From assembly GCA_030670005.1 (NCBI GenBank), contig DAOVCL010000001.1, positions 1 to 41,640 of the forward strand: a DNA stretch of 41,640 nt. The letters run 5' to 3'. Of this stretch, positions 18,512 through 33,000 are shown piece by piece. The DNA comes from Candidatus Zixiibacteriota bacterium (GTDB lineage Bacteria > SM23-81 > DAOVCL01). Position numbers and translations under genes: made by a program. Each line of letters begins with the position of its first letter. Within the stretch, counting starts at the first letter, position 1. The notes under the pieces were generated by a model. That model was not told where the DNA came from, made no database searches, and was given only the letters and a program-made list of their open reading frames with translations.

Positions 18512-20188
18512 TCACCTGATCAGCAAGAGTTTTCTGGTTTTCTGAGCCACACCTCCTTTCTGGGTTTGCACCCTCAATTGACAGAAGTAAACTCCACTCC
18601 CCACTTCTCTCCCCTCCTCATCCTTTCCATCCCAGGTTACCTCATATCTCCCTCCTTTTTGTAGTTTATCGACCAAAGTTTTTACCTCTTGCCCTAATAA
18701 GTTGTAGATCCTCAAAGTGACGGCGGACGGCCGACCGCGGACGGCGGACAGGGTGTAGCGGATCAGGGTGGTGGCATTGAAGGGATTGGGAAAGTTCTGC
18801 CGCAAACTCACCTCCCTGGGCAGCTCTAATCCTCCTTTCTCCTCCTGCACATAATTAAGCGTTGTATCTCCAGAGAAGACCATCACCCTCCCCTCACTGT
18901 TTTCATATGGCGGAGTATATAGCCCCGGTGCCCCAAAGAGGATGTCATCTATCCCATTCCCATTCACATCCCCTGCCCTGCCCACAGATTTGCCGCAACC
19001 CTCATAAGAACCAGAGAAACCGTTGAACCCTACATCGAGCTTCCCATCCATAATCCTGCCACCCAAGTAGACAAGTACAGCACCCAGGTCCCCAAACCCA
19101 CTGGGATTGCCTGCTAACACATCAGCATAGCCATCTCTGTTGATATCACCAGCTTGGGGAAAGGGCCCCTGCGGTCCCCACCAAACATTGCCATCTTCTA
19201 AGATCACATCGGGAATGGTATCCACCTCCTGCCCACCATAAAAGATATAGGCTCTGTATATATAGCCTAACGAATCCCAATAACCACCTCCACAAATTAT
19301 GTCTGCATATTCATCTCCATTCACATCACCAATGACGGATACTTCGGAGCTAATACGGTATGATAGATGCTCTTCATCAAGCACAAAGTCTGGGATAGTG
19401 TCCATCTCCTGACCCCCGAAATAAAGACGAAAATAATCCGGGGAAGGGGTACCTTTCATCCCTCCTATAACCACATCATCATAGCCATCACCATTAATAT
19501 CACCACCTCCGGAGACACTAATACCTAAGCCAGAGCGAGCTGAATCCCCCACCACAGTCCAATCAGGGATGCTATCCATATCCGGGCCACCCAAAAAGAT
19601 ATAGACCTTGCCCTGCATGGTTTCATTGGGATAATTTACCGCTGACACGATAACATCATCATATCCATCACTGTTTACATCTCCTGCGGTTGAAAGAGAA
19701 CAACCAAAACCATCAAGAAAGTTCTCACCAACCAGAATCACATTCGGAATGGTATCCAATAAGGGTCCACCAAAATAGATGTATATTACACCTGGCTCCT
19801 CGGCATAGTATCTGCTCACGTAGATCATGAAATCACCAGCTTCGTCACCATTAACATCTCCAGCATAACTCAATCGAGATGTAAGTATCTCATCATTGCC
19901 TCTACTCCTAAGAACCATATCCGGTATTGAATCCATCGGTGAGCCACCATAGTAGAGGTAGACTTTCTGGTCGCCACTTGCTCCAGCTATGATATCATCA
20001 TATCCATCCCCATTCTGATCACCTATCCCAGCAACGCCATACCCGAGTCTGCTTCCAGCACTATCCCCCACCGCCTCAAGTAATTTCACTCCGCTATACT
20101 TTCCATGCTTCAGAAACTGTCCACGAGTAGATACCGAAATAGTCAGGAATGTGACGGCGAAGACTGGGATTATGTATTTAGGTTTCAT
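18512..20188 (-). CDS. FG-GAP/VCBS-repeat beta-propeller protein with T9SS C-terminal sorting domain
   Basis: Signal peptide MKPKYIIPVFAVTFLTISVS. At least seven GDxNGDGYDDxxxG repeats (GDQNGDGYDDIIAGA, GDVNSDGYDDVIVSA, GDINGDGYDDVVIGG, GDINRDGYADVLAGN, GDVNGNGIDDILFGA...). C-terminus NFPNPFNATTLIRYTLSAVRGRPSAVTLRIYNLLGQEV... Confidence 0.85.
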   Translation of the reverse strand: MKPKYIIPVFAVTFLTISVSTRGQFLKHGKYSGVKLLEAVGDSAGSRLGYGVAGIGDQNGDGYDDIIAGASGDQKVYLYYGGSPMDSIPDMVLRSRGNDEILTSRLSYAGDVNGDEAGDFMIYVSRYYAEEPGVIYIYFGGPLLDTIPNVILVGENFLDGFGCSLSTAGDVNSDGYDDVIVSAVNYPNETMQGKVYIFLGGPDMDSIPDWTVVGDSARSGLGISVSGGGDINGDGYDDVVIGGMKGTPSPDYFRLYFGGQEMDTIPDFVLDEEHLSYRISSEVSVIGDVNGDEYADIICGGGYWDSLGYIYRAYIFYGGQEVDTIPDVILEDGNVWWGPQGPFPQAGDINRDGYADVLAGNPSGFGDLGAVLVYLGGRIMDGKLDVGFNGFSGSYEGCGKSVGRAGDVNGNGIDDILFGAPGLYTPPYENSEGRVMVFSGDTTLNYVQEEKGGLELPREVSLRQNFPNPFNATTLIRYTLSAVRGRPSAVTLRIYNLLGQEVKTLVDKLQKGGRYEVTWDGKDEEGREVGSGVYFCQLRVQTQKGGVAQKTRKLLLIR

Positions 20189-20224
20189 TTAATCTCCCTC
20201 CTAAGAGGTGGTTGACCCTCTATC

Positions 20225-20839
20225 GCAAAGGTAACGCCCTCCTTGTGCTTATTATCTTTAGCCTATCACCATCCACAGCCCCGCTGTAGCCTGAGAGGTG
20301 GCTCATGGTCAAATATTGCATCAGCTTTAGATTGAGCATATCTCGTGGGTGTGGTTTTTTGGTGGCGTTACCTGTAGGTAACTGAAAGGCATAAGTGAAA
20401 TGTGATCCGAACCAGCCTCTTTGATAGAGGATTAGCTACAGAGGGATGACGAGTAGCCAGTAGTAAGTGGCTTTAACCGCTGCATCCAGGTTAAGCAAAC
20501 GTAACTCTGGCGAAGATAAGAGAGGGAAATGCAGGAGTACTTGTATTGGTAATCAAATGCAACTCAGGAAGCGCTTAGTCAAACCATTTTAGCTTCTGTT
20601 TCCACCAAACAAGAAAACCAATTGGCAATCCTCTGTCAAGGGAATTTTTATCCGTTTTGCAGAATAGAGATACCGGACTCTGAATCCCTGGGGCTTCCGT
20701 AGGAAACCCTGCCAAGCTTTGCTCGGTCGTATAAAGCTTCACTTCGTTGATCCAATAAGATCACCGTCTGCTGGCAATTAGATTCTTGTCTGCACAAAAG
20801 ACAGGAGCCATCCGATTTCACGGATGGCTTTTTGTTTTT
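20225..20839 (+). ncRNA. Candidate large structured ncRNA of unknown family (5' end uncertain)
   Basis: No ORF of 60 aa or more in any frame across 20189-20993. A 10-bp long-range helix pairs 20229-20238 with 20364-20373. Multiple nested hairpins are present. The 3' end is a canonical intrinsic terminator at 20806-20839. Confidence 0.4.
20806..20839 (+). terminator. Rho-independent terminator
   Basis: AGCCATCCG-ATTTCA-CGGATGGCT forms a 9-bp stem, followed by TTTTGTTTTTG. There is no upstream CDS on this strand. Confidence 0.75.
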
Positions 20840-20993
20840 GGGTTATCCACAACCCAGATCACTTAGCTAAGAGCCAAAACGGATTTTGCCTTCCCAATTT
20901 TGTCTCCAGGGACAATTTCTTCCGTCTATTTTATCCTTTCTTCTCCTGTTACGATTGAAGTATGAATCTGAAACAGAAAGGGGGTGATAGAGA

Positions 20994-21323
20994 ATGAAAA
21001 ATCACTCCCAAAGAATCAAGCAGAAGACAATTAAACAGAAACAGATACTAAACAGGCTTTGGAAATATCGCAAGGAGCGAGGGCTAACACAGAGAGATGT
21101 AGCTTACATACTGGGGACAAAGAATTCTTCTCAGATCTCCCACTGGGAGAGAGGAGACAAGATCCCCGGGACCAGGAATATCTTGAAACTCTCTGCTCTG
21201 TATCAGCGGTTATCCAATGATCTTCTATGGGGATTCTATGAGAAGCTAAGGGAAGAAGTAATAGCCAGGAAGAAGAAATTAAAAAATCTAAAGATCAGAC
21301 ATGCTCAAACCCAAAGAAGTTGA
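20994..21323 (+). CDS. XRE-family helix-turn-helix transcriptional regulator
   Basis: GGGGGTGA SD upstream. LWKYRKERGLTQRDVAYILGTKNSSQISHWERGDKIP is a classic HTH_3 pattern. 109 aa. Confidence 0.85.
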   Translation: MKNHSQRIKQKTIKQKQILNRLWKYRKERGLTQRDVAYILGTKNSSQISHWERGDKIPGTRNILKLSALYQRLSNDLLWGFYEKLREEVIARKKKLKNLKIRHAQTQRS

Positions 21324-21352
21324 GCAGGGCTTAGAAAAATAAGTCTAATATT

Positions 21353-22045
21353 ATGCAAATCCAAATCAGGGATTTAAGAAATGGAGATTGGTATTGGATA
21401 CATAAGCAAATAATCCAGGAGCATGCTCCTAAAATAAAAGCAGTGGGAGTTTTGGTTTACAGCTTTCTTGCTTGCCTTGTGGATAAAAGCCAGGCCTGTT
21501 TTCCCTCTCAAAAATACATGGCCGAGAAGCTTGGCTACTCACGGGCCACCATATCCGAAACCATCAGAGTCCTGGAAAGTTCTGGACTGATTAAGATAGA
21601 GAGACGAAGCAGGTATCATCTGGTCTACTCTCTGCTCAAGGTGAGATGTCAAAGGGAGTTTACACCTGAAACCAGATGTAAAGCAGAGGAAACTCAGATG
21701 TCAAATAGGGGAAACTCAGATGTAAACTATGGTGACACTAACGATAATACGTTAACAAGAATATATAATACCGATAATAACGATAGAATAAAAACAGGAA
21801 CGGTCTTAAAAAAATTCAGACCTAAAAGCAAAGAAGAACTGTTAGCCTGGGATATTGCTCAATCTTTAGATGATGAAAAAAACCTGGGCCTCTACATCTC
21901 CTACTGTCGCAAGTATCCTGGGGATATAATCTGGAGGGCATTTGGAGAGACGAAAGAAATTTCAACAGAGAAAATCAAGAAGTCCAGAGGGGCCCTGTTT
22001 ACCTATCTGGTTAAAAAGTATTCAAATAATAAGAAAAAGTTATGA
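21353..22045 (+). CDS. Winged-helix DNA-binding protein, putative replication initiator (paralog 1)
   Basis: wHTH-like FPSQKYMAEKLGYSRATISETIRVLESSGLIKIER. The C-terminal module ...NLGLYISYCRKYPGDIIWRAFGE...KIKKSRGALFTYLVKKY is shared with the next gene. Confidence 0.5.
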   Translation: MQIQIRDLRNGDWYWIHKQIIQEHAPKIKAVGVLVYSFLACLVDKSQACFPSQKYMAEKLGYSRATISETIRVLESSGLIKIERRSRYHLVYSLLKVRCQREFTPETRCKAEETQMSNRGNSDVNYGDTNDNTLTRIYNTDNNDRIKTGTVLKKFRPKSKEELLAWDIAQSLDDEKNLGLYISYCRKYPGDIIWRAFGETKEISTEKIKKSRGALFTYLVKKYSNNKKKL

Positions 22046-22599
22046 TCAAAGAACCCCCTAAAATCTTACTCTTAAGAAGCAGGCTCATCGGAAATGATGG
22101 GAGAAGCTATCAGAGGATGAGACAGACCATTTGGCTCTATCTCTATTTGGTGCTGCAGCTCAACCCTAAGACGGGAAGATTGGCCACCAAGGTATCAACC
22201 ATAAGCCAGGATATGGGAATAAAACAAGAAACTATTAGAAGCTGGCTTGGCCATCTGAGGAGAAAGGGCTATGTGTCAGTGAAGAGGGATGGGGATTACT
22301 GGCTGATAACCGTAACCGGCTTGAAGCCAATCCCGGAAAGCTATCAGGCCAAAGCCTTGAAACCGGATGAGGTAGTCAATGTCGAAAAGCAGAGACTGGC
22401 CCAGAGGATAGCAAAGGAGTTTGAGGATGAGGGCAACCTGGGATATTATGAGGACCTCTGTGAGAGATACCCAGAACATTTAATTAACCGCGCCTTTTCT
22501 GAGGTGAAGAAAGTGCCTCAAGTAAAGATCAAAAAGTCGAGGGGCGCGCTATTTACATATCTTGTGAAAAAATATGCCAACAAAAAAGAAGAAAAATAA
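22042..22599 (+). CDS. Winged-helix DNA-binding protein, putative replication initiator (paralog 2)
   Basis: ATGA overlap with the upstream gene. wHTH-like ISQDMGIKQETIRSWLGHLRRKGYVSVKR. C-terminal ...NLGYYEDLCERYPEHLINRAFSE...KIKKSRGALFTYLVKKY. Confidence 0.5.
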   Translation: MIKEPPKILLLRSRLIGNDGRSYQRMRQTIWLYLYLVLQLNPKTGRLATKVSTISQDMGIKQETIRSWLGHLRRKGYVSVKRDGDYWLITVTGLKPIPESYQAKALKPDEVVNVEKQRLAQRIAKEFEDEGNLGYYEDLCERYPEHLINRAFSEVKKVPQVKIKKSRGALFTYLVKKYANKKEEK

Positions 22600-23080
22600 T
22601 AAAAGGATTCTGTGCATTGACCCTGGCACCAGGGAGATGGGCATAGCCATCTTAGAAGATACAGAGCTCATCTATTATGGGGTGAAGACGCTGAAGAAGA
22701 AGAGGCCGACTTCGGTTCTCTTGCGGGAGACAAGGAGGATCATCTCCAGGCTGATTGATGACTATGGCCTCAAGACCCTGGTCATTGAGAAGACCTTCTT
22801 CAATCGCAACAAGAATGTCTCCAACCTCATTGTCATGGCTGAGGAGATAAAGGCCTTGGCTAAAAAGAGAAAACTGAAAGTGGTTGAATATGCCCCCAAG
22901 ACAGTGCGTAAATCCGTCTGTCAGGACGGTAAGGCCACGAAGAGGGAAGTGGCCAAAGTAATCTCTTCCCGGTATCCAGAGCTAAACATATATCTGACCC
23001 AGGATCGCAAGTGGAAGGTGAAGTATTGGCAGAATTGCTTTGATGCAATAGCCTTGGGTCTCTGTTATCTATCTGAATAG
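22574..23080 (+). CDS. RuvC-like Holliday-junction resolvase (RNase H fold)
   Basis: ILCIDPGTREMGIAIL (first Asp), LVIEKTFFNRN (Glu), VVEYAPKTVRKSVCQDGKATKREV, and CFDAIALGLCY (C-terminal Asp). 168 aa. Overlaps the upstream gene. Confidence 0.8.
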   Translation: MPTKKKKNNKRILCIDPGTREMGIAILEDTELIYYGVKTLKKKRPTSVLLRETRRIISRLIDDYGLKTLVIEKTFFNRNKNVSNLIVMAEEIKALAKKRKLKVVEYAPKTVRKSVCQDGKATKREVAKVISSRYPELNIYLTQDRKWKVKYWQNCFDAIALGLCYLSE

Positions 23081-23085
23081 CTTTC

Positions 23086-23197
23086 TCCCTCTTCCCCCTG
23101 GTCTCATGGTAGGCCAGGTTATGCTCTTCTTGCCAAGGGTGTAAGGTGCGGTCTGGCCAGAGGCAAGATCAGGTGGGGCTGCACCTGGGAAGAGGGA
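23086..23197. other. Multi-branch palindromic structure (closing stem plus three hairpins)
   Basis: TCCCTCTTCCC (23086-23096) pairs with GGGAAGAGGGA (23187-23197). Internal hairpins are CCTGG/CCAGG (23097-23118), TCTTGCC/GGCAAGA (23128-23168) and CAGGTG/CACCTG (23170-23187). Confidence 0.4.
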
Positions 23198-23372
23198 TTG
23201 GTTATTGGACGATATGAGGCCATTGTGGGGTATAAAAAGTGCCCTTCGAAGTCCTATAAAGGACAAGCTAAGGTTAAAGTTGGTATGGTTATTTGGGAGA
23301 GAAGTTAAAAGCTGGCAGGGTTAATTGCCGGTATAAGTCTTAATGGTCTCAAGGAGCTCGTTTCTCTTGTCG

Positions 23373-23903
23373 CTAAACTTCGACTCTTCTTATTGGTATT
23401 CCACCTTTTGAATAGATGGCTTTAACCTCATTGAGATGACCGGTTTGAGTTGATATGATGATGCGGGCTTCAGCATGCGGGGCCAACCGAGGAATACCGA
23501 ATTTCATCACGCTGTCAGGTGATACACGAGCCTGCCTCAATTTGGGGCGCCACATACTGCTGTCCTCGCGAATTGTCCTAGGAGCGGCGAGGATATTGAC
23601 TTCTTGGTCTGACAGAATTTGATATGCCCAAATAGGTGAGTTGCTGACGATACTGAGTTCTATATTTTGGGTCTCCTTTCGTCCTTGATTATTCAAAATG
23701 AGACCTGATTCATGGCGAGAGAGTTTCTTATTGTCTTTTTCAAGTGGGAACATTTGATTTGGCCCGTAAAGAATAACTCTTGGTTTTTCTCTGGCATAAT
23801 AGTTGTAACACGGTCCATACCAAAAAGGAATGGAAATAAATGCTATGATTATAGCTATTGCCTGCCATTTAAGAGTTTTCTTTCTTGTCTTTGATCTTGG
23901 CAT
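23373..23903 (-). CDS. Single-pass membrane protein, unknown function
   Basis: Basic N-terminus MPRSKTRKKTLK followed by the TM segment WQAIAIIIAFISIPFWYGPCY, then about 130 aa with no recognisable motif. Confidence 0.5.
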   Translation of the reverse strand: MPRSKTRKKTLKWQAIAIIIAFISIPFWYGPCYNYYAREKPRVILYGPNQMFPLEKDNKKLSRHESGLILNNQGRKETQNIELSIVSNSPIWAYQILSDQEVNILAAPRTIREDSSMWRPKLRQARVSPDSVMKFGIPRLAPHAEARIIISTQTGHLNEVKAIYSKGGIPIRRVEV

Positions 23904-24055
23904 AGAGAAGAGTCAGGATTTTCTTACTTCCTTTTTGGGTTTCTGAATAAGTTAATGATCTGCTCCTTGGTTGGGATTTGGGACAGTTTGTACAGATCGG
24001 GTAAGTTGCAGTAATCTTGGAAATAGCAGGTAAAGGTAATTCCGAGCAAGCGGGC

Positions 24056-24762
24056 TTAGCTTTGTAAGCACTTCGCCAGGAATTCCTCAATTTCCTCTCG
24101 GAATTTCCAACCCTTTCTCTTTGTATCAAAAAGAAGGGAGGCCATTGGATTGGCTCCACTAAGATGAGGGAGTATTAACAAATTGCAGCTAGGGCTCTCT
24201 CTTTCTCCTATAGGAAAATGAACCTTGATTGGTTCTGAATCTGCCCCTGACAGAGCTCTTTTTAACTCTTTCCAGAAGAAATCTCTCCAATCGAGTGACA
24301 CATTAGCTTTCTTCAAAATCCAGATACTACCATGGTTACCTACGCATATAATTGTCTTAGGCAAAGTTCGTTTTATCTCTTCAGGTAACCAATGATCAGC
24401 ACACGCACGTAAGTTGATCCCTTTGTGTTTTTCTTGACGGATATTTCCAAAACACTTTATGTAGTGGGTCCAGTATAGTTTCAAGTCTCTATCTGGAGGT
24501 ACTCAAAAATAGATTGGAGTCTGTTTAAATGAATCCCACCTCTTTTGGAGATTGGAGGATCTATCGGGTACGCAGCAGGATGTAAGTTTTTTCTACCCCA
24601 ACAGATAAGCTCTTTCTTGTCATCTTTTATGCCTTCACATAATTTTATATCGTAGAAAAGAGGCTTTCCGGGGAATGATATTTCCCCGGTTGGCTGTTCT
24701 GTAATGATGAGGGCATGAATCTGGGGCCCTTCATATCCCTTACTATCAAAGGTATTGTCCAT
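24056..24762 (-). pseudogene. Divergent UDG-superfamily (DNA glycosylase-like) gene interrupted by a frameshift near 24484
   Basis: AAGGAGA SD upstream of the ATG at 24762. The upstream half carries a motif-A-like LIITEQPTGEISFPGKPLF and ...GGIHLNRLQSIFEYLQIE. The downstream half, in another frame, continues with LYWTHYIKCFGN, TIICVGNHGS and a motif-B-like LLILPHLSGANP. The two ORFs overlap as TTGA. Confidence 0.5.
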
Positions 24763-25015
24763 TATTTCTCCTTTGTTTTTGTTTCTTTCTACGAGAGTGA
24801 CCAAGCTTACATGATAGTTTGAAGACCAACAACTACCACCAGCTAAAATCGGTGGATTGGTAGGGATAACTAAAGCTATTTCTTAACTTCGGTGACCTTA
24901 AAATCTCCCTGGCAACTCTCCTGTTGACTGTCTTTTTTAAGGTTCTGTGCTTTGTTATCCATGAACTCGAGAAACTCGAATTACTAAAAACTAAGTACCA
25001 ATTCCAATGAGGAGC

Positions 25016-26011
25016 CTATTTTTTGAGTATCCTTTTTAGGCTTTGAATAAATGTATAACCATCTACCCAATTTTGATTACGACTTTTGTCATTCCCAGAA
25101 CCCTTTTCAATGTCAACATAGTCAACTTTGTATTTCTGGTTAGAGTGAACTAAGAGATACTCAAGAGCAGACTGGCGCTTATACTTCTTGTCCTTTAAAA
25201 ATGCAGGTCGCTTGGTAAACCTTTCTTGGTCAGTTTTTTGCAAAATTTGTAATTCTTCAACTATGACCTCACAGAGGTTTTCGATGGTTCTGGCTGCATC
25301 ACCTTCCAATCCTAAACCTATGAAGATTTTCTCTTGTTCGGTGGTGGCTTTTGCAACCAGATCAAAGAAATCAAGTTGATCGACATAGTAGCTTTCCCTC
25401 TCGCCTTTGGGAGGGAATTCTTCCTTGTAGTTCGAGACACCCTTGGATAATACACGCACCAGATAGTGGCTTGATCCAAACTCAGTCTCAAATTCTGATA
25501 ATAAATCAGACCAAGTAATTATAGAATCAACTCCTTCTATCTGAGTGAATTTTTCTGATCCTCCATATATGAAACAATGATGAACGTATTGGATTTCGGT
25601 GTTCTGAAGAATGTCATTGATGGTTTTCTTCTGTAAATATATCTGGTGCTCAATAGCATTTTTCTGGATACGCTGGAAAAATTTAGCTTCGCCAACTATC
25701 AGGTATTTATCCATAAGCACAAGAGTAATATCAGGCACTGCGTATTCGTTATTCTCCGTAAAGTCCCTACCATACCAGAGTTCCGTTGAAAGTTGCACAT
25801 TCTCGTAGTTAAAGTCAGCTTCCATAAATTCCTTGAGGTCAATATGCAACTTTCTATTGTTTCTGTCTTTAAACGGCAACTTGCCCGAATCGTCCTTTAG
25901 CAACGAGAGGAAGGTCTTGAGTCCTCCAAATTGGCTTTCCATAATCATCGAGGCCAGTACGGTTGCTGTCCAGTATTTTTCCGTGCGGTTGTTTTCGTCT
26001 AAACGTTTCAT
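25016..26011 (-). CDS. PD-(D/E)xK-family nuclease-like protein with an uncharacterised C-terminal domain
   Basis: Ordered motif STELWYG ... VPDITLVLMDKYLIVGEAKFF (E...PD...ExK) followed by QxxxxxQ helices. About 170 further aa have no recognisable motif. Confidence 0.55.
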   Translation of the reverse strand: MKRLDENNRTEKYWTATVLASMIMESQFGGLKTFLSLLKDDSGKLPFKDRNNRKLHIDLKEFMEADFNYENVQLSTELWYGRDFTENNEYAVPDITLVLMDKYLIVGEAKFFQRIQKNAIEHQIYLQKKTINDILQNTEIQYVHHCFIYGGSEKFTQIEGVDSIITWSDLLSEFETEFGSSHYLVRVLSKGVSNYKEEFPPKGERESYYVDQLDFFDLVAKATTEQEKIFIGLGLEGDAARTIENLCEVIVEELQILQKTDQERFTKRPAFLKDKKYKRQSALEYLLVHSNQKYKVDYVDIEKGSGNDKSRNQNWVDGYTFIQSLKRILKK

Positions 26012-26227
26012 TGCTATTCCTCTCTTTCATTTTTGCCGCTTCCCCTTTGTTTGGTCTATTAGCTTATATAAGCACCAAAGTCTGGTCACGCCTCGGCTTC
26101 ATGGCGTTGCCAGGGCCATTTAGCCTATCTTGTTTATATCCGACAGCGTTGCGATACTTCTTTGTAGAATAGAATTAAACCCAAAAATCAAAAAAAGCAA
26201 GGGTTTTTCCATTGCCTTTTGATTTCT

Positions 26228-26638
26228 TTACTTCATTTCGCCTATTTTGGGTGGCACGGCAAGGATCTCGGCCCCTTTAAGGCGATTTGGAATATCATTG
26301 AGCCAATGTTCTGCATCCTTGATAGGTCCCCGCACCAACAGCATATCATCGCTACCCGGTATAACTATAACTGCGTACCAATCTTTGTTCAATTCGCAGG
26401 GATCGTCTGGGGCTTTGCGGTAAACGTCGATCCCCCCGATCAGAGAACCAGAAGGCACATGTGGATCAGAGTGTGGGATCCCGGGGTCCTCACTTCCGCT
26501 CGCATAGACTGAATGCACGACGGTGGCTGGGATACTTCGTAACCACCTCGGAATGGCGTCATCAATTAACTGCACCGGTGCCCACTTACGCCTCATCACT
26601 GCCTGAAACTGGCAAAGCGGCATCTTTTTGATTCGCAT
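26228..26638 (-). CDS. Hypothetical protein (136 aa)
   Basis: The ATG at 26638 is preceded by AAAGGAGAG at 5-6 nt spacing. No recognisable motif. GC is visibly higher than in neighbouring island genes. Confidence 0.45.
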   Translation of the reverse strand: MRIKKMPLCQFQAVMRRKWAPVQLIDDAIPRWLRSIPATVVHSVYASGSEDPGIPHSDPHVPSGSLIGGIDVYRKAPDDPCELNKDWYAVIVIPGSDDMLLVRGPIKDAEHWLNDIPNRLKGAEILAVPPKIGEMK

Positions 26639-27017
26639 CCACACTCTCCTTTCTATTCTCTGGAGTTTAAAGTTTTTCCCCTGACTTAGAAATAAATGGA
26701 TTTTGCGGTCACTGTCAATTTATTTTCCCCCTTGCCTTTTGGTTTTTAGAAGAAAACTAATGGCCAAGGTGGTATAAAAACCCCCGCCTTCAACATAAAG
26801 ATATTTTGCGGTTGTTGAAGGTGGGGTCGCCAGACTGCCAAAGCATTCGCTGCTTTGGTAATTAAATTCTAAGTGGGTTTTGAGAAGTTGTCAAAACAGC
26901 AAATCGGTGGCGATTTAGTATAACAACTTGGTGTGTCTGCGAAGTGTAAGGTATTAGGGCAAGCGAAATAAGCCGCAAAGCCTGTATCAGATGAAGTTGC
27001 AGCTTAGGGGGAATTTC

Positions 27018-28097
27018 TCAGAAAAATAGATGAGCCCCATGTTTCTCAAGGAATTCACGCTTGGATAATGTAATATAATCCTCAAACACGTCTTTCTTGT
27101 CTTCAGGCCAAAGAATCTTGTATCGCCTTACGAAGCCTATGACATGGTCATTGAAGGGCAACAAAAGTCTCATTTCAGCCAGAGATTTGAGCCCAGCGAG
27201 TGCCAGGTTGTCCGGAAGTGATTTTAGCGCCCTCTTAGCTGCAGGAGCACCGTACCATGCACCAGAATTAGCTTGATTTAGTAGGGCTTGAACATACCTT
27301 GCTTCCAGCTCTGTTGGGATAGCATCTTGTGCTTTGGGCACTGCAGGAGTTATTTCGTTCACTTCATTATATTGATCTTGTTCCATGGTGGCAACAATAT
27401 CTGTAAAGAATGCTATGCGAAGTCTTTCATCAGTCCCTTTGAGTAATTCCGTAGGTACAGAAGATAGGAATTTAGCCTTAGTAGAAGCTTGGCTCGATAG
27501 AGTTACTTTTCGCAAGATCTGTTCAAGAATCAATATCGCCTTTTCATCATACGTTCCACTTGAGAGGATGGCCATCAAGGAATCTCCGGCGGAATCTTGC
27601 TCAAAGGCTTCAACAAGTTTGTCCAAGACGTACGCCTGATCTTGTTCACTTAACAGCTGTAGTTTGAGGGCCAAAGGTTCTAATGGAGTACCCGGCTTTT
27701 TGGCAGCATTGAGTATTGACTTGGCATCAGATGTAGGCGTATATGAGATAGTTGGAATTGTCTTAGGAATTTCTTTGGCTGACATACTGTGTAATCTTCC
27801 GGCGATTACTTGAGCCTGGAGAACGCCGCTTTCGACTAAGGAATAGAGTTGATCACGTCTTGCTTTCAGTTCCTCTGGCGTGAATTTGTTACCTTTAGGG
27901 TGTTTAGAATCGTATGCGCCTATCTCTTGATGGCAATCAAAGCAGAGGGGGATCCCATTGTCGTCATCATTACCGCCCTCGGCTTCTTGGATGATATGAG
28001 CTGCTTCAATGTTAGTTCCACACTGTTTAAAACAGAGGCAGCATATACGAGCGCAGCGAACAAACATTCTTGCTTTGGTATTCTTATCAAAAGGCAT
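27018..28097 (-). CDS. HNH endonuclease domain protein with long alpha-helical C-terminal extension
   Basis: N-terminal CCLCFKQCGTNIEAAHIIQEAEGGNDDDNGIPLCFDCHQEIG shows a CxxC...H...N...CxxCH HNH/zinc pattern. About 280 further aa are predicted helical by composition. Confidence 0.75.
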   Translation of the reverse strand: MPFDKNTKARMFVRCARICCLCFKQCGTNIEAAHIIQEAEGGNDDDNGIPLCFDCHQEIGAYDSKHPKGNKFTPEELKARRDQLYSLVESGVLQAQVIAGRLHSMSAKEIPKTIPTISYTPTSDAKSILNAAKKPGTPLEPLALKLQLLSEQDQAYVLDKLVEAFEQDSAGDSLMAILSSGTYDEKAILILEQILRKVTLSSQASTKAKFLSSVPTELLKGTDERLRIAFFTDIVATMEQDQYNEVNEITPAVPKAQDAIPTELEARYVQALLNQANSGAWYGAPAAKRALKSLPDNLALAGLKSLAEMRLLLPFNDHVIGFVRRYKILWPEDKKDVFEDYITLSKREFLEKHGAHLFF

Positions 28098-28396
28098 TTG
28101 AAACCCATCCTGGATTTACCATCGCTTCAATCCTTACCACTCAAAACTCAGATCGGAATGTTTGACTGTTTCATTTCGTTTCAATATAATCTCGCCTACC
28201 ACCTAAATCTCGATGGTTTACCTGCTAATAACCCTTCAACACTAATATCTTCATCTAGATCTTCCCAGTGAATGCCCTGCCCTCCACCAATCAACCGGAA
28301 CTTAGCTCCCTTCGGTCGCTAACTTCTCCATAGGGTCTCACCGACCCTCTGGCGCTCCGCAATCCTGCGCTTGCTCGGATTGCTCCGCTGTCACCC

Positions 28397-28464
28397 TTGA
28401 AGGGGGCATACCCCCTTCAAACAACCCCCGACATTTCGGAATTTTTTAGAAATTCCGAAATGTC
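28397..28464. repeat. Two adjacent perfect palindromes
   Basis: TTGAAGGGGG-CATA-CCCCCTTCAA (28397-28420, 10-bp arms) and GACATTTCGGAATTT-5 nt-AAATTCCGAAATGTC (28430-28464, 15-bp arms). Confidence 0.8.
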
Positions 28465-28673
28465 CAACTATTACGCTCTTCTTGGGTTGAATGCAAAAGC
28501 CTGGGGAACCGGGCAAGCGGAACAGAAATGCTTCGTCCATCACTTAGATCAACGCTTAAGGTGTCTTCTGTTACAGTAACACTTTGTGCAGTAGGCATTT
28601 GTATTTCAACCGCCAAAGTATTCATTCCAACCCTCTAAGGTGGCAGAAGCCCTCTTCCGCCACCTTCTCCTTT

Positions 28674-28699
28674 GCCGTCAGAACAGGGGTTCTGACGGC
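28674..28699 (-). terminator. Strong hairpin 25 nt downstream of the clpC stop (non-canonical, no U-tract)
   Basis: GCCGTCAGAAC-AGGG-GTTCTGACGGC has an 11-bp perfect stem. A second hairpin, GGTGGCAGAAG-CCCT-CTTCCGCCACC, lies at 28639-28664. Confidence 0.45.
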
Positions 28700-28723
28700 T
28701 CAGGAAGATAACACCCCATCGTC

Positions 28724-31192: not shown

Positions 31193-32252
31193 CTTGCTCT
31201 CCTTTAGATAGTTTTTCCCTCACCAGGGTAGCTCTCTCCACATCCCTTTCCGGAGCATCAATCACCAGATTTAGGTTCTTCTGCAGGTGGGCAGGTTGGG
31301 TCAACAGAAGCAATTGGTTAATGGTCAGAAGGGAAACAGAACCTATTACCCCCATTCCCAACCCCAACCTGAGGGCAGAGAGAAGATTCATCACCTCCTG
31401 AGAGGTGAGAACTCGCGCATTTCGCAGTATCCCATAGGCCCGCCAGATCTTGTCCTCGATCTGATCCCGGGCATCTTTAATTAAGGTCTCCCTTGCTTTC
31501 TCCTCATAGGCGATGACCTGCCTGGTAATCCTCTCTAAATTCTCTATGATCTCTTCCTCGGATCTCCCCAAAGTAGTCTGATTCGATATCTGGAAGAGGT
31601 TTCCTAAAACATTGGTCCCCTCCCCATAGAAACCCCTGACCACGAACCCTACCTGGGAGACCCCTTTGAGGACCTTGTTTATGTTGTTGGTCAATACCAG
31701 CCCGGGAAGGTGGATAAGGACCGAGGCCCTAAGACCTGTGCCGGTATTGGTGGGACAGGCGGTGAGAAAACCGAATCTCTCAGAGAAGGAGAATTCCATC
31801 CCTTGGCTGAGTTGGTCATCTGCACGGTCAGCTATCTCCCAGGCAGAATTGGGCTGAAACCCCGACTGGATAACCTGAATGCGGAGGTGATCCTCCTCAT
31901 TGACCATTATGCTCACCACCTCACCCTCACCCACAAAGAGTCCCTCAATTCCCCCATCTCGGCCAAACCCAGGGGAAGTCAGATGCCTCTCCACCAAAAA
32001 ATCCTTGTCCAGATCAGAGAGGTCATCCATAGGGAGAAAGAGACCTTTTTTAGAAGGCCAGAAATCCCCCACCCCATCTCGCACGGCTCCCAAGACCTGG
32101 GTCAACTGTTCCTTGCTGGCATAATGGACGAAGGGGAGTCCCTTCAGGTTGCGCGCTAACCTCACCCGACTGGAAAGGACAAGATCGGAATGAGGACCAC
32201 TCCCATCAAGCCAGGTGGCCAGCTTCTGCTTCAAATCATCTAAAGTGGGCAT
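31173..32252 (-). CDS. mcsB: Protein arginine kinase McsB
   Basis: Guanido-kinase signature LTACPTNTGTGLRASVLIHLPGL. N-terminal LSSRVRLARNLKGLPF. 359 aa. Overlaps the clpC start. Confidence 0.9.
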   Translation of the reverse strand: MPTLDDLKQKLATWLDGSGPHSDLVLSSRVRLARNLKGLPFVHYASKEQLTQVLGAVRDGVGDFWPSKKGLFLPMDDLSDLDKDFLVERHLTSPGFGRDGGIEGLFVGEGEVVSIMVNEEDHLRIQVIQSGFQPNSAWEIADRADDQLSQGMEFSFSERFGFLTACPTNTGTGLRASVLIHLPGLVLTNNINKVLKGVSQVGFVVRGFYGEGTNVLGNLFQISNQTTLGRSEEEIIENLERITRQVIAYEEKARETLIKDARDQIEDKIWRAYGILRNARVLTSQEVMNLLSALRLGLGMGVIGSVSLLTINQLLLLTQPAHLQKNLNLVIDAPERDVERATLVREKLSKGEQDGWNVQ

Positions 32253-32408
32253 TTAACCCCGGATTATGTGTTAGGAAACCACGAGATTATCACAAAGTAT
32301 TCAAAATAAAGAACTCACAAAAATTAAGTTTAAACCCCTCTTTCACCTAAAAGGTGAAAGCCTAGATTCTTGCAAATTCTTACATAAATCTATGAAAATC
32401 CGTGTTCA

Positions 32409-32471
32409 CCCTGTTAAATAATTTAGAAATAAACGTCATCGCATTCTCAAGATGGTTTTTATTTAACGGGG
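32409..32471. repeat. 13-bp inverted repeat enclosing 37 nt within the mcsA-mcsB spacer
   Basis: CCCTGTTAAATAA (32409-32421) pairs with TTATTTAACGGGG (32459-32471), giving 12 Watson-Crick pairs and 1 T-G pair. A separate 8-bp hairpin, CTTTCACC-TAAAA-GGTGAAAG, lies at 32340-32360. Confidence 0.6.
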
Positions 32472-32499
32472 TTCATCTGCGGTTTATGCATATTTTGGG

Positions 32500-33000
32500 T
32501 TAACTGCTTTTGCTCAAATCCTTTATCATATCCCTGAGCTCGGCTGCCCTCTCAAACTCCTCACTCTCTATAGCCTTGCGCAGATTGTCCCTCAGCTTCC
32601 TCACTTCCCTCTTTAGCTCCATCTTTAAGCTCAGTTGAGGGGGTGACTTTCCCACATGCTGGTTGCTTCCATGGATCCTGCGCAGGAGATCCTTCAATTG
32701 CGAGGAGAAGGTCTCATAGCAGACCCCACAGCCAAGCTTCCCGGTTTTCTCGAATTCGGCAAAGCTATGGCCGCATCCCGGGCAGAGTATTTCAACCCCT
32801 TTTCCCTCCACTTTCTCAGGTTCTTTCTTGGTCATTCCGGCAAAAAGGTCACCCAGGGAGAAGGAGATGTTGCTTATCGCCTCCTTCAATCCTCTCTTCT
32901 CCGCACATTTTCGGCAGAGGTGGAGGACCGTTTTTTTGTCATTTACTATCTGGGTAAACTTTATGGTGGCTGGATTCTTCCCACAGTCGTCGCAAAGCAT
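32500..33000 (-). CDS. mcsA: McsA-like UvrB/UvrC-motif zinc-finger protein (arginine kinase activator)
   Basis: CxxC pairs CDDCG...CRKC and CPGCG...CGVC. C-terminal UVR motif [16 protein letters not shown]. The ATG at 33000 shares one nucleotide with the lolD stop (TGATG). Confidence 0.8.
   Translation of the reverse strand: MLCDDCGKNPATIKFTQIVNDKKTVLHLCRKCAEKRGLKEAISNISFSLGDLFAGMTKKEPEKVEGKGVEILCPGCGHSFAEFEKTGKLGCGVCYETFSSQLKDLLRRIHGSNQHVGKSPPQLSLKMELKREVRKLRDNLRKAIESEEFERAAELRDMIKDLSKSS

Follow-up and report, generated by a model that had tools for sequence, protein, structure and literature searches.

Family-4 UDGs, UdgX and the Brig glycosylases are the described systems closest to the locus reported here. 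The family-4 enzymes carry GE(A/G)PG as motif A and HPAAVL as motif B, and UdgX of M. smegmatis carries GEQPG and HPSSLL, respectively (PMC4787834). In the S. tokodaii family-4 enzyme, Asn N82 is the residue that reads the face of uracil, as cited in PMC11078745. Brig1 and Brig2 are UDG-fold anti-phage DNA glycosylases that act on modified bases, and the best structural match of Brig1 is the same S. tokodaii family-4 enzyme (PMC11078745; bioRxiv 10.1101/2025.10.29.685425).

In a 41,640-nucleotide stretch of DNA from a Candidatus Zixiibacteriota bacterium (hereafter the window, meaning the whole stretch analysed) we identified two minus-strand ORFs that share the sequence TTGA between the end of the first and the start of the second, and that are collinear halves of one UDG-superfamily protein. 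A first-pass annotation had described the overlapping pair, with coordinates that proved exact, as a further, highly divergent gene of the UDG superfamily that a frameshift splits within the fold; this assignment is now borne out by the match of the joined sequence, by homologs that are single ORFs and by the predicted fold of a relative. The two halves, and the family-4 UDG of the same genome that served as the comparison copy, are as follows:

24481..24762, minus strand: N-half ORF, 93 aa, from ATG at 24762 to TGA at 24483-24481; contains beta1 with motif A (ALIITEQPTGE), the cysteine pair C42/C54 (LCEG...ICWG) and the helix GGIHLNRLQSIFEYLQIE
24056..24484, minus strand: C-half ORF, 142 aa, from TTG at 24484 to TAA at 24058-24056; contains beta2 (LYWTHYIKC), beta3 (TIICVGNHG), beta4 with motif B (LLILPHLSGANP), C104 and C121
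4673..5368, minus strand: housekeeping family-4 UDG; motifs GEAPG and HPAALL, cysteines in CQRC, KC and LC

Family-4 UDGs (UdgA; 1ui0 of T. thermophilus, 4zbx/4zby of S. tokodaii and 1vk2 of T. maritima) were the best profile and structural matches, and the locus shares with them the order of beta1 with motif A, a helix, beta2 ending in KC, a Cys-x3-L helix, beta3, beta4 and the His of motif B. Nevertheless, the joined sequence scored only 17.9 bits vs a cut-off of 125.3 for the family-4 profile TIGR00758 and 19.2 vs 250 for NF040953, and is not a family-4 member. Several residues of the fold point the same way: motif A is TEQP in the clade of relatives described below (TEQPT in the window) rather than GE(A/G)PG, motif B is HPSG.N (HLSGAN in the window) rather than HPAAVL, an invariant His in the strand motif YWTH takes the place of the uracil-reading Asn, and the N-terminal cysteine pair is C-x5-C-WG (C-x11-C in the window) as opposed to C-x2-C. 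In the window's subtype this pair, moreover, follows motif A instead of preceding it.

With UdgX, itself an Fe-S-type UDG fold, the clade has in common the E-Q-P of motif A and the H-P-S of motif B, and UdgX was among the top structural matches of the relative that we modelled. However, the clade alignment showed no KRRIH loop, the defining feature of UdgX, the joined sequence gave no match to TIGR03914 at E-values up to 0.1, and the sequence match to UdgX was weak (E about 0.03-0.1). The likeness to Brig1 and Brig2, compared by published description, is one of overall profile: all are divergent stand-alone UDG proteins to which, among solved structures, the S. tokodaii family-4 enzyme comes nearest, with an altered base-reading residue and AT-rich, mobile or defence-island contexts, to which the clade offers a parallel in relatives that reside in a type I restriction-modification (R-M) operon or beside a type IIG R-M gene. 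They differ in that Brig1 has a Glu (E147) where the clade has His, and in that Brig1 homologues are mostly actinobacterial whereas members of the clade occur in uncultured archaea, WOR-3, Cloacimonadota and Desantisbacteria; unlike either Brig protein, furthermore, the window's copy is broken.

Identity of the joined protein

The C-half alone matched the Pfam UDG profile PF03167 with an E-value of 1.8e-4 and 22 bits over profile positions 50-128, just under the gathering cut-off of 24.3 bits. When the two halves were joined, a comparison with the UDG superfamily that had been suggested at the annotation stage, the score was 25.2 bits vs the cut-off of 24.3, and the alignment (residues 80-210) spanned the junction. 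The housekeeping UDG scored 137.6 bits against the same profile and 213 bits against TIGR00758 (cut-off 125.3). In a phmmer search of PDB sequences with the joined protein, the matches were family-4 UDGs alone (4zbx, 1ui0), again with alignments across the junction. In the alignments to these family-4 enzymes YWTHYIKC lay opposite ITNVVKC, CADHWL opposite C..YL and IICVGNHG opposite IIVTLGRH, with PHLSGAN of motif B opposite HPS/HPA. BLASTP of the joined protein against the housekeeping UDG aligned GYEGPQIHALIITEQPTGEISFPGKPLF and placed TEQPTGE...GKPLF opposite GEAPGG...GRPFV; together with the HMM alignments this upholds the five motif correspondences with the housekeeping copy that had originally been read from the sequence alone. 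Motif A and motif B stand at the expected UDG positions in the joined protein, but with altered residues, TEQP in the former and Leu for the usual proline in the latter. The N-half scored 17.1 bits against an HMM built from the N-termini of homologs, a value reached by 0 of 2000 shuffled sequences (shuffle maximum 5.2), and the HMM matched it in swapped segment order.

An attempt to model the C-half alone with AF2 gave a pLDDT of 35 and was unusable. The fold was instead modelled for the closest intact relative (L011:7989-8624, from a WOR-3 MAG), which is 31% identical, has the same domain order and was placed in a 12-row alignment; a search for contigs on record that encode this protein returned none. 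The AF2 model had a pLDDT of 68.9 and a pTM of 0.70, with strands formed by KILLIT (followed by EQP), YYWTH, VIFTF and the segment ahead of HPSG, in keeping with the alpha/beta fold and four-stranded parallel sheet of the UDG superfamily. All top Foldseek matches of this model in the PDB were members of the UDG superfamily, the best being 4zby (S. tokodaii family 4; E 2e-4, probability 1.0, TM ~0.5), followed by UdgX, the T. maritima and T. thermophilus family-4 enzymes, and then TDG, MUG and SMUG1. The structural comparison that had been proposed for the repaired fusion was therefore made on the relative, where it returned a UDG fold with family 4 as the best match.

A motif-defined clade and its cysteines

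An exhaustive phmmer search with the 142-aa half detected 42 other proteins with E < 1e-3; the best had an E-value of 4e-18, and 15 fell below 1e-10. A word-indexed homolog search with the joined protein returned only the protein itself, and the same kind of search with the family alignment returned only seven proteins. In all, roughly 40-60 sequences of the clade are known in public data, from Bathyarchaeota, Heimdallarchaeota, Thermoplasmata, Thermoproteales, Thermococci, Methanoregula, WOR-3, Cloacimonadota and Desantisbacteria; no relatives were present in IMG/VR viral contigs, GenBank phages or PLSDB plasmids. PF03167 was matched by 26 of the 27 aligned members (best E 1.2e-13), and the family profile matched the sequences of the family-4 UDG structures 1ui0 (3e-8) and 4zbx (3e-6). 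Among the top-ranked papers of a literature search, none described a UDG family with the motifs of this clade.

The typical homolog is a single ORF of 212-240 aa. The window's C-half starts at residue 95-112 of such proteins, meaning that their N-terminal extension is about the size of the 93-aa ORF. Of 63 related loci that we surveyed in genomes of GTDB and metagenomes of JGI, about 43 had one intact ORF with both halves, most of the others being cut by contig ends. Whether homologs are single ORFs had been raised as a check on the split, and the answer was that they are; as the norm of the family is one gene, the window's copy is broken.

The motifs that define the clade in our alignment (A1) are C-x5-C-WG, (I/V)M(V/I)ITEQP, (F)YWTH(F/Y)IKCPGN, CA(D/E)xWL..EI, P.LI..FG, W...W.E and HPSG.N. 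Four cysteines (C42, C54, C104 and C121 in the numbering of the joined protein) are invariant or nearly so. For two of them, C104 and C121, the aligned counterparts in family-4 UDGs are the cysteines of KC and C-x3-L, at nearly equal spacing (17 vs 16 residues). The initial reading that the Fe-S cysteines of family 4 are absent consequently does not hold, since four are conserved and two of these stand at family-4 ligand positions. The four-cysteine site of the intact ancestor would probably bind a [4Fe-4S] cluster. The cysteine pair (C-xn-C-WG) comes after the TEQP strand in the window, L011, L037 and L066, and before it in most members and in family 4. The C-terminal-domain tree of the clade is star-like and gives no signal for or against a single origin of this permuted subtype.

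On beta2, the window has His100 where family 4 has the uracil-reading Asn, and this His is almost invariant in the YWTH of the clade. As that Asn is replaced and a normal family-4 UDG is encoded elsewhere in the genome, the target is probably not plain uracil, and the residue comparison fits the initial suggestion that the substrate may be other than uracil. Overall, the window's copy keeps 30 of 37 well-conserved columns, with four of the seven misses accounted for by the displaced TEQ strand. The motif-B proline, which is kept in 25 of 26 relatives, is Leu in the window (HLSGAN), with the His and Ser retained, and the proline of IKC-P-GN is Phe; both losses are consistent with relaxed constraint.

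Nature of the frame break

Three features on the minus strand bear on how the two halves came to be in different frames, the third of which is a candidate slippery site noted within the N-half:

24768..24773, minus strand: Shine-Dalgarno sequence AAGGAG, 5 nt ahead of the ATG at 24762
24484..24502, minus strand: interval in which the frame changes, 19 nt; net change -1 nt or +2
24529-24523, minus strand: in-frame heptamer T TTA AAC within the N-half ORF

The AAGGAG is the start signal for the whole ancestral gene, and a similar motif stands ahead of about half of the window's long ORFs. Inspection of the sequence upstream of TTG 24484 revealed no ribosome-binding site. Frame B, that of the C-half, is closed by a TGA at 24505-24503, and frame A by the TGA at 24483-24481, so that the frame must change within 24484-24502; an open frame of 148 aa agrees with this interval. 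The first-pass annotation had located the change at 24463-24483, which is the wrong side of the overlap, although its observation that the critical interval contains no slippery heptamer applies equally to 24484-24502, where we found neither an X XXY YYZ heptamer nor a homopolymer run of four or more. The frame-B stop lies 7 codons upstream of TTG 24484, and this TTG is simply the first start-like codon past that stop, so the neat TTGA overlap merely reflects the rules by which ORFs are called. The break has the helix that follows motif A on one side and strand beta2 on the other, which places it inside a single alpha/beta domain; on the L011 model it would part beta1 from beta2-beta4 of one sheet.

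The gene is base-for-base identical to the window in four independent contigs (Logan SRR26080964 and SRR13892598; ENA ERZ23499054 and ERZ23499063), which derive from distinct runs and samples of two or more studies and were built by two assemblers/pipelines (Logan, ENA). All four were called as 93 + 142 aa and differ from the window only outside the gene, and gene calls in the metagenomes yield the same 93-aa N-half product. We consider it highly probable that the locus is one gene of ~235 aa cut by a genuine frameshift, and that it is most likely a recently inactivated pseudogene. A sequencing or assembly artefact hiding a single intact ORF is a very improbable explanation: metagenome-assembled genomes do contain indel errors, but 100% identity between the window and four contigs of separate origin makes such an error unlikely, and there is no homopolymer run in the interval at which one might have arisen. 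The lack of both homopolymer and slippery heptamer, together with this identity, argues against random error and programmed recoding alike. A programmed -1 ribosomal frameshift, or transcriptional slippage, that yields the full-length enzyme is the least probable of the explanations considered, even though the shift needed is -1 and TTTAAAC is present in frame at 24529. A -1 slip at that site meets the frame-B TGA at 24505-24503 after 8 codons, meaning that the heptamer is almost certainly a coincidence; the interval 24484-24502 contains neither an X XXY YYZ site nor a run of A or T, and the homologs require no recoding. The only in-frame slippery heptamers (24592 and 24529) both precede the frame-B stop, a further ground on which programmed frameshifting was rejected.

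A genuinely split, two-subunit enzyme, in which both products are made, the second via termination-reinitiation at TTGA, and assemble non-covalently into a UDG fold, would account for several features of the locus: both pieces are intact apart from the frame change, most conserved residues are retained, the stop/start overlap resembles that of coupled genes, and the arrangement is fixed in all sampled populations. We nonetheless regard it as unlikely. No relative is divided at this point into two intact pieces, the norm being one ORF, and the broken copies found elsewhere in the clade break at other positions or bear several lesions. Moreover, the TTG lacks a Shine-Dalgarno sequence and is simply the first start-like codon that the frame offers, 7 codons past a stop, the cut separates strands of a single sheet, and the motif-B proline is gone. 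That both halves are otherwise free of stops and keep 30 of the 37 columns means either that inactivation was recent or that the pieces are still under selection; the frame change and the proline losses taken together fit recent inactivation with the first signs of decay. Of the three options initially put forward, a pseudogene is thus the best fit, an assembly error has become unlikely and a functional split is without support.

On the pseudogene reading, a net one base was lost from 24484-24502, or two were added there. Translation from ATG 24762 would end at TGA 24483-24481 and give a fragment of 93 aa that comprises beta1, motif A and one pair of cysteines, leaving the other 142 codons (beta2-beta4, two cysteines and motif B) out of frame. 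The sole route to the C-half would be re-initiation, at low efficiency, at TTG 24484, which no ribosome-binding site precedes. The intact ancestor would have been a monofunctional DNA glycosylase, presumably flipping its base into a pocket formed by the Y-W-T-H strand, TEQP of motif A and HPSG.N of motif B.

Other copies in the clade are also broken, amounting to about 7 of roughly 55 complete loci. In a Bathyarchaeota MAG (L010:6780-7483) there is an A-run frameshift and an in-frame TAG 12 codons ahead of YWTH; a Thermoproteales copy (L014:1900-2650, the same sequence as L067) has N-terminal stops and a frameshift after LIVCMG; and four more (L035, L043, L064 and L066) are truncated within their contigs. 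Decay therefore seems to be common in the clade.

Genomic setting and possible role

The window is chromosomal, encoding DnaB, CoaBC, the family-4 UDG, T9SS-tail proteins and ClpC/McsB. Within it lies an island that holds the broken gene:

20080..28298, strand not applicable: low-GC island of ~8.2 kb, 40-45% GC vs 48-54% outside
island, plus strand: Cro/cI-like HTH protein, two replication-initiator-like wHTH proteins and a RuvC-like resolvase (Pfam, PHROGs)
island, minus strand: HNH protein, 138-aa ORF, 331-aa ORF, the split UDG-like gene and a 176-aa membrane protein

By blastn, the island had no match in two genomes of the same genus, whilst both flanks matched at 71% and 82-87% identity; the split UDG-like gene is absent from both genomes. 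The island is strain-specific and foreign, and the broken gene is part of its accessory cargo. From its domain matches, the plus-strand part is predicted to be a phage-like regulatory and replication module. The minus-strand genes of the island gave no match worth noting to PADLOC. One of them (27018-28097, minus strand) encodes a 359-aa protein whose N-terminal part is an HNH domain (best match to PHROG HNH families 1.6e-8), which also matches the HNH region of IscB weakly and has a long C-terminal part without a family match.

At the boundary between the island and clpC (28298-28464) lies a dispersed repeat of ~165 bp, present in dozens of copies at 82-94% identity across both same-genus genomes. 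A piece of ~70 bp at 28638-28707 and a repeat of ~245 bp at 32251-32500, downstream of mcsB, are also multi-copy; all three look like MITE- or REP-like elements. Two metagenome contigs (L001 and L002) stop at 28325 and 28291, respectively, at the edge of the 165-bp repeat. The assembly that contains the window comprises 224 contigs totalling 1.85 Mb, with a completeness rating of 90%, against 3.0-3.2 Mb and 97-99% for the two same-genus genomes, so either the completeness estimate is generous or the lineage is much reduced.

The neighbourhoods of relatives are mixed. In L011, the closest intact relative, the UDG-like gene is the last in an operon of hsdM, Schlafen-AlbA_2, hsdS, hsdR and YgjP, its start overlapping the stop of the YgjP-like metallopeptidase gene. 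In this WOR-3 MAG (L011:128-8627) the Schlafen/AlbA_2-HATPase gene is inserted between hsdM and hsdS of the type I R-M operon, and its product has weak PADLOC matches to pAgo-associated models. The divergent neighbour in L051 is a type IIG restriction-methylase (PADLOC 6e-85), and the neighbour in L059 has the same N6_Mtase and Eco57I Pfam domains. Other members stand directly after a tyrosine integrase (L013), after a large defence-type helicase (L030) or near a NucS/PD-(D/E)xK nuclease (L018), and many have housekeeping or ORFan neighbours. An intact member is also carried by contigs of 23-27 kb (L063 and L020-L022; P0028) on which almost no gene has a Pfam match, and which may represent an archaeal virus or other mobile element. 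A conserved operon with the neighbouring genes was considered and rejected, as neighbours vary from locus to locus. The joined protein matched neither PHROGs nor PADLOC, the 2023 version of which predates Brig1/Brig2.

That several relatives adjoin R-M genes makes a Brig-like defence role plausible, whilst the mixture of neighbourhoods means that the link to defence is partial. Our preferred, though tentative, view of function is that members of the clade may be Brig-like anti-phage glycosylases acting on a modified base, the alternative being a specialised repair glycosylase. More broadly, it is possible, at well below an even chance, that the four-cysteine proteins with TEQP, YWTHxIKCPGN and HPSGxN motifs constitute an unrecognised Fe-S UDG-fold family, horizontally spread among uncultured archaea and candidate phyla, which would serve as a stand-alone anti-phage glycosylase against a modified base, often alongside R-M, with the window preserving a recently decayed copy.

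For the genome itself the result is an ordinary one: a probably defunct accessory gene on a small island of foreign DNA, with the family-4 UDG performing the housekeeping function. The wider value lies with the clade, a compact, motif-defined and uncharacterised branch of UDGs. As its base-reading Asn-to-His change, four cysteines, scattered taxa, R-M neighbours and frequent decay resemble the profile of Brig1/Brig2, the clade provides a candidate set in which new modified-base specificities might be found.
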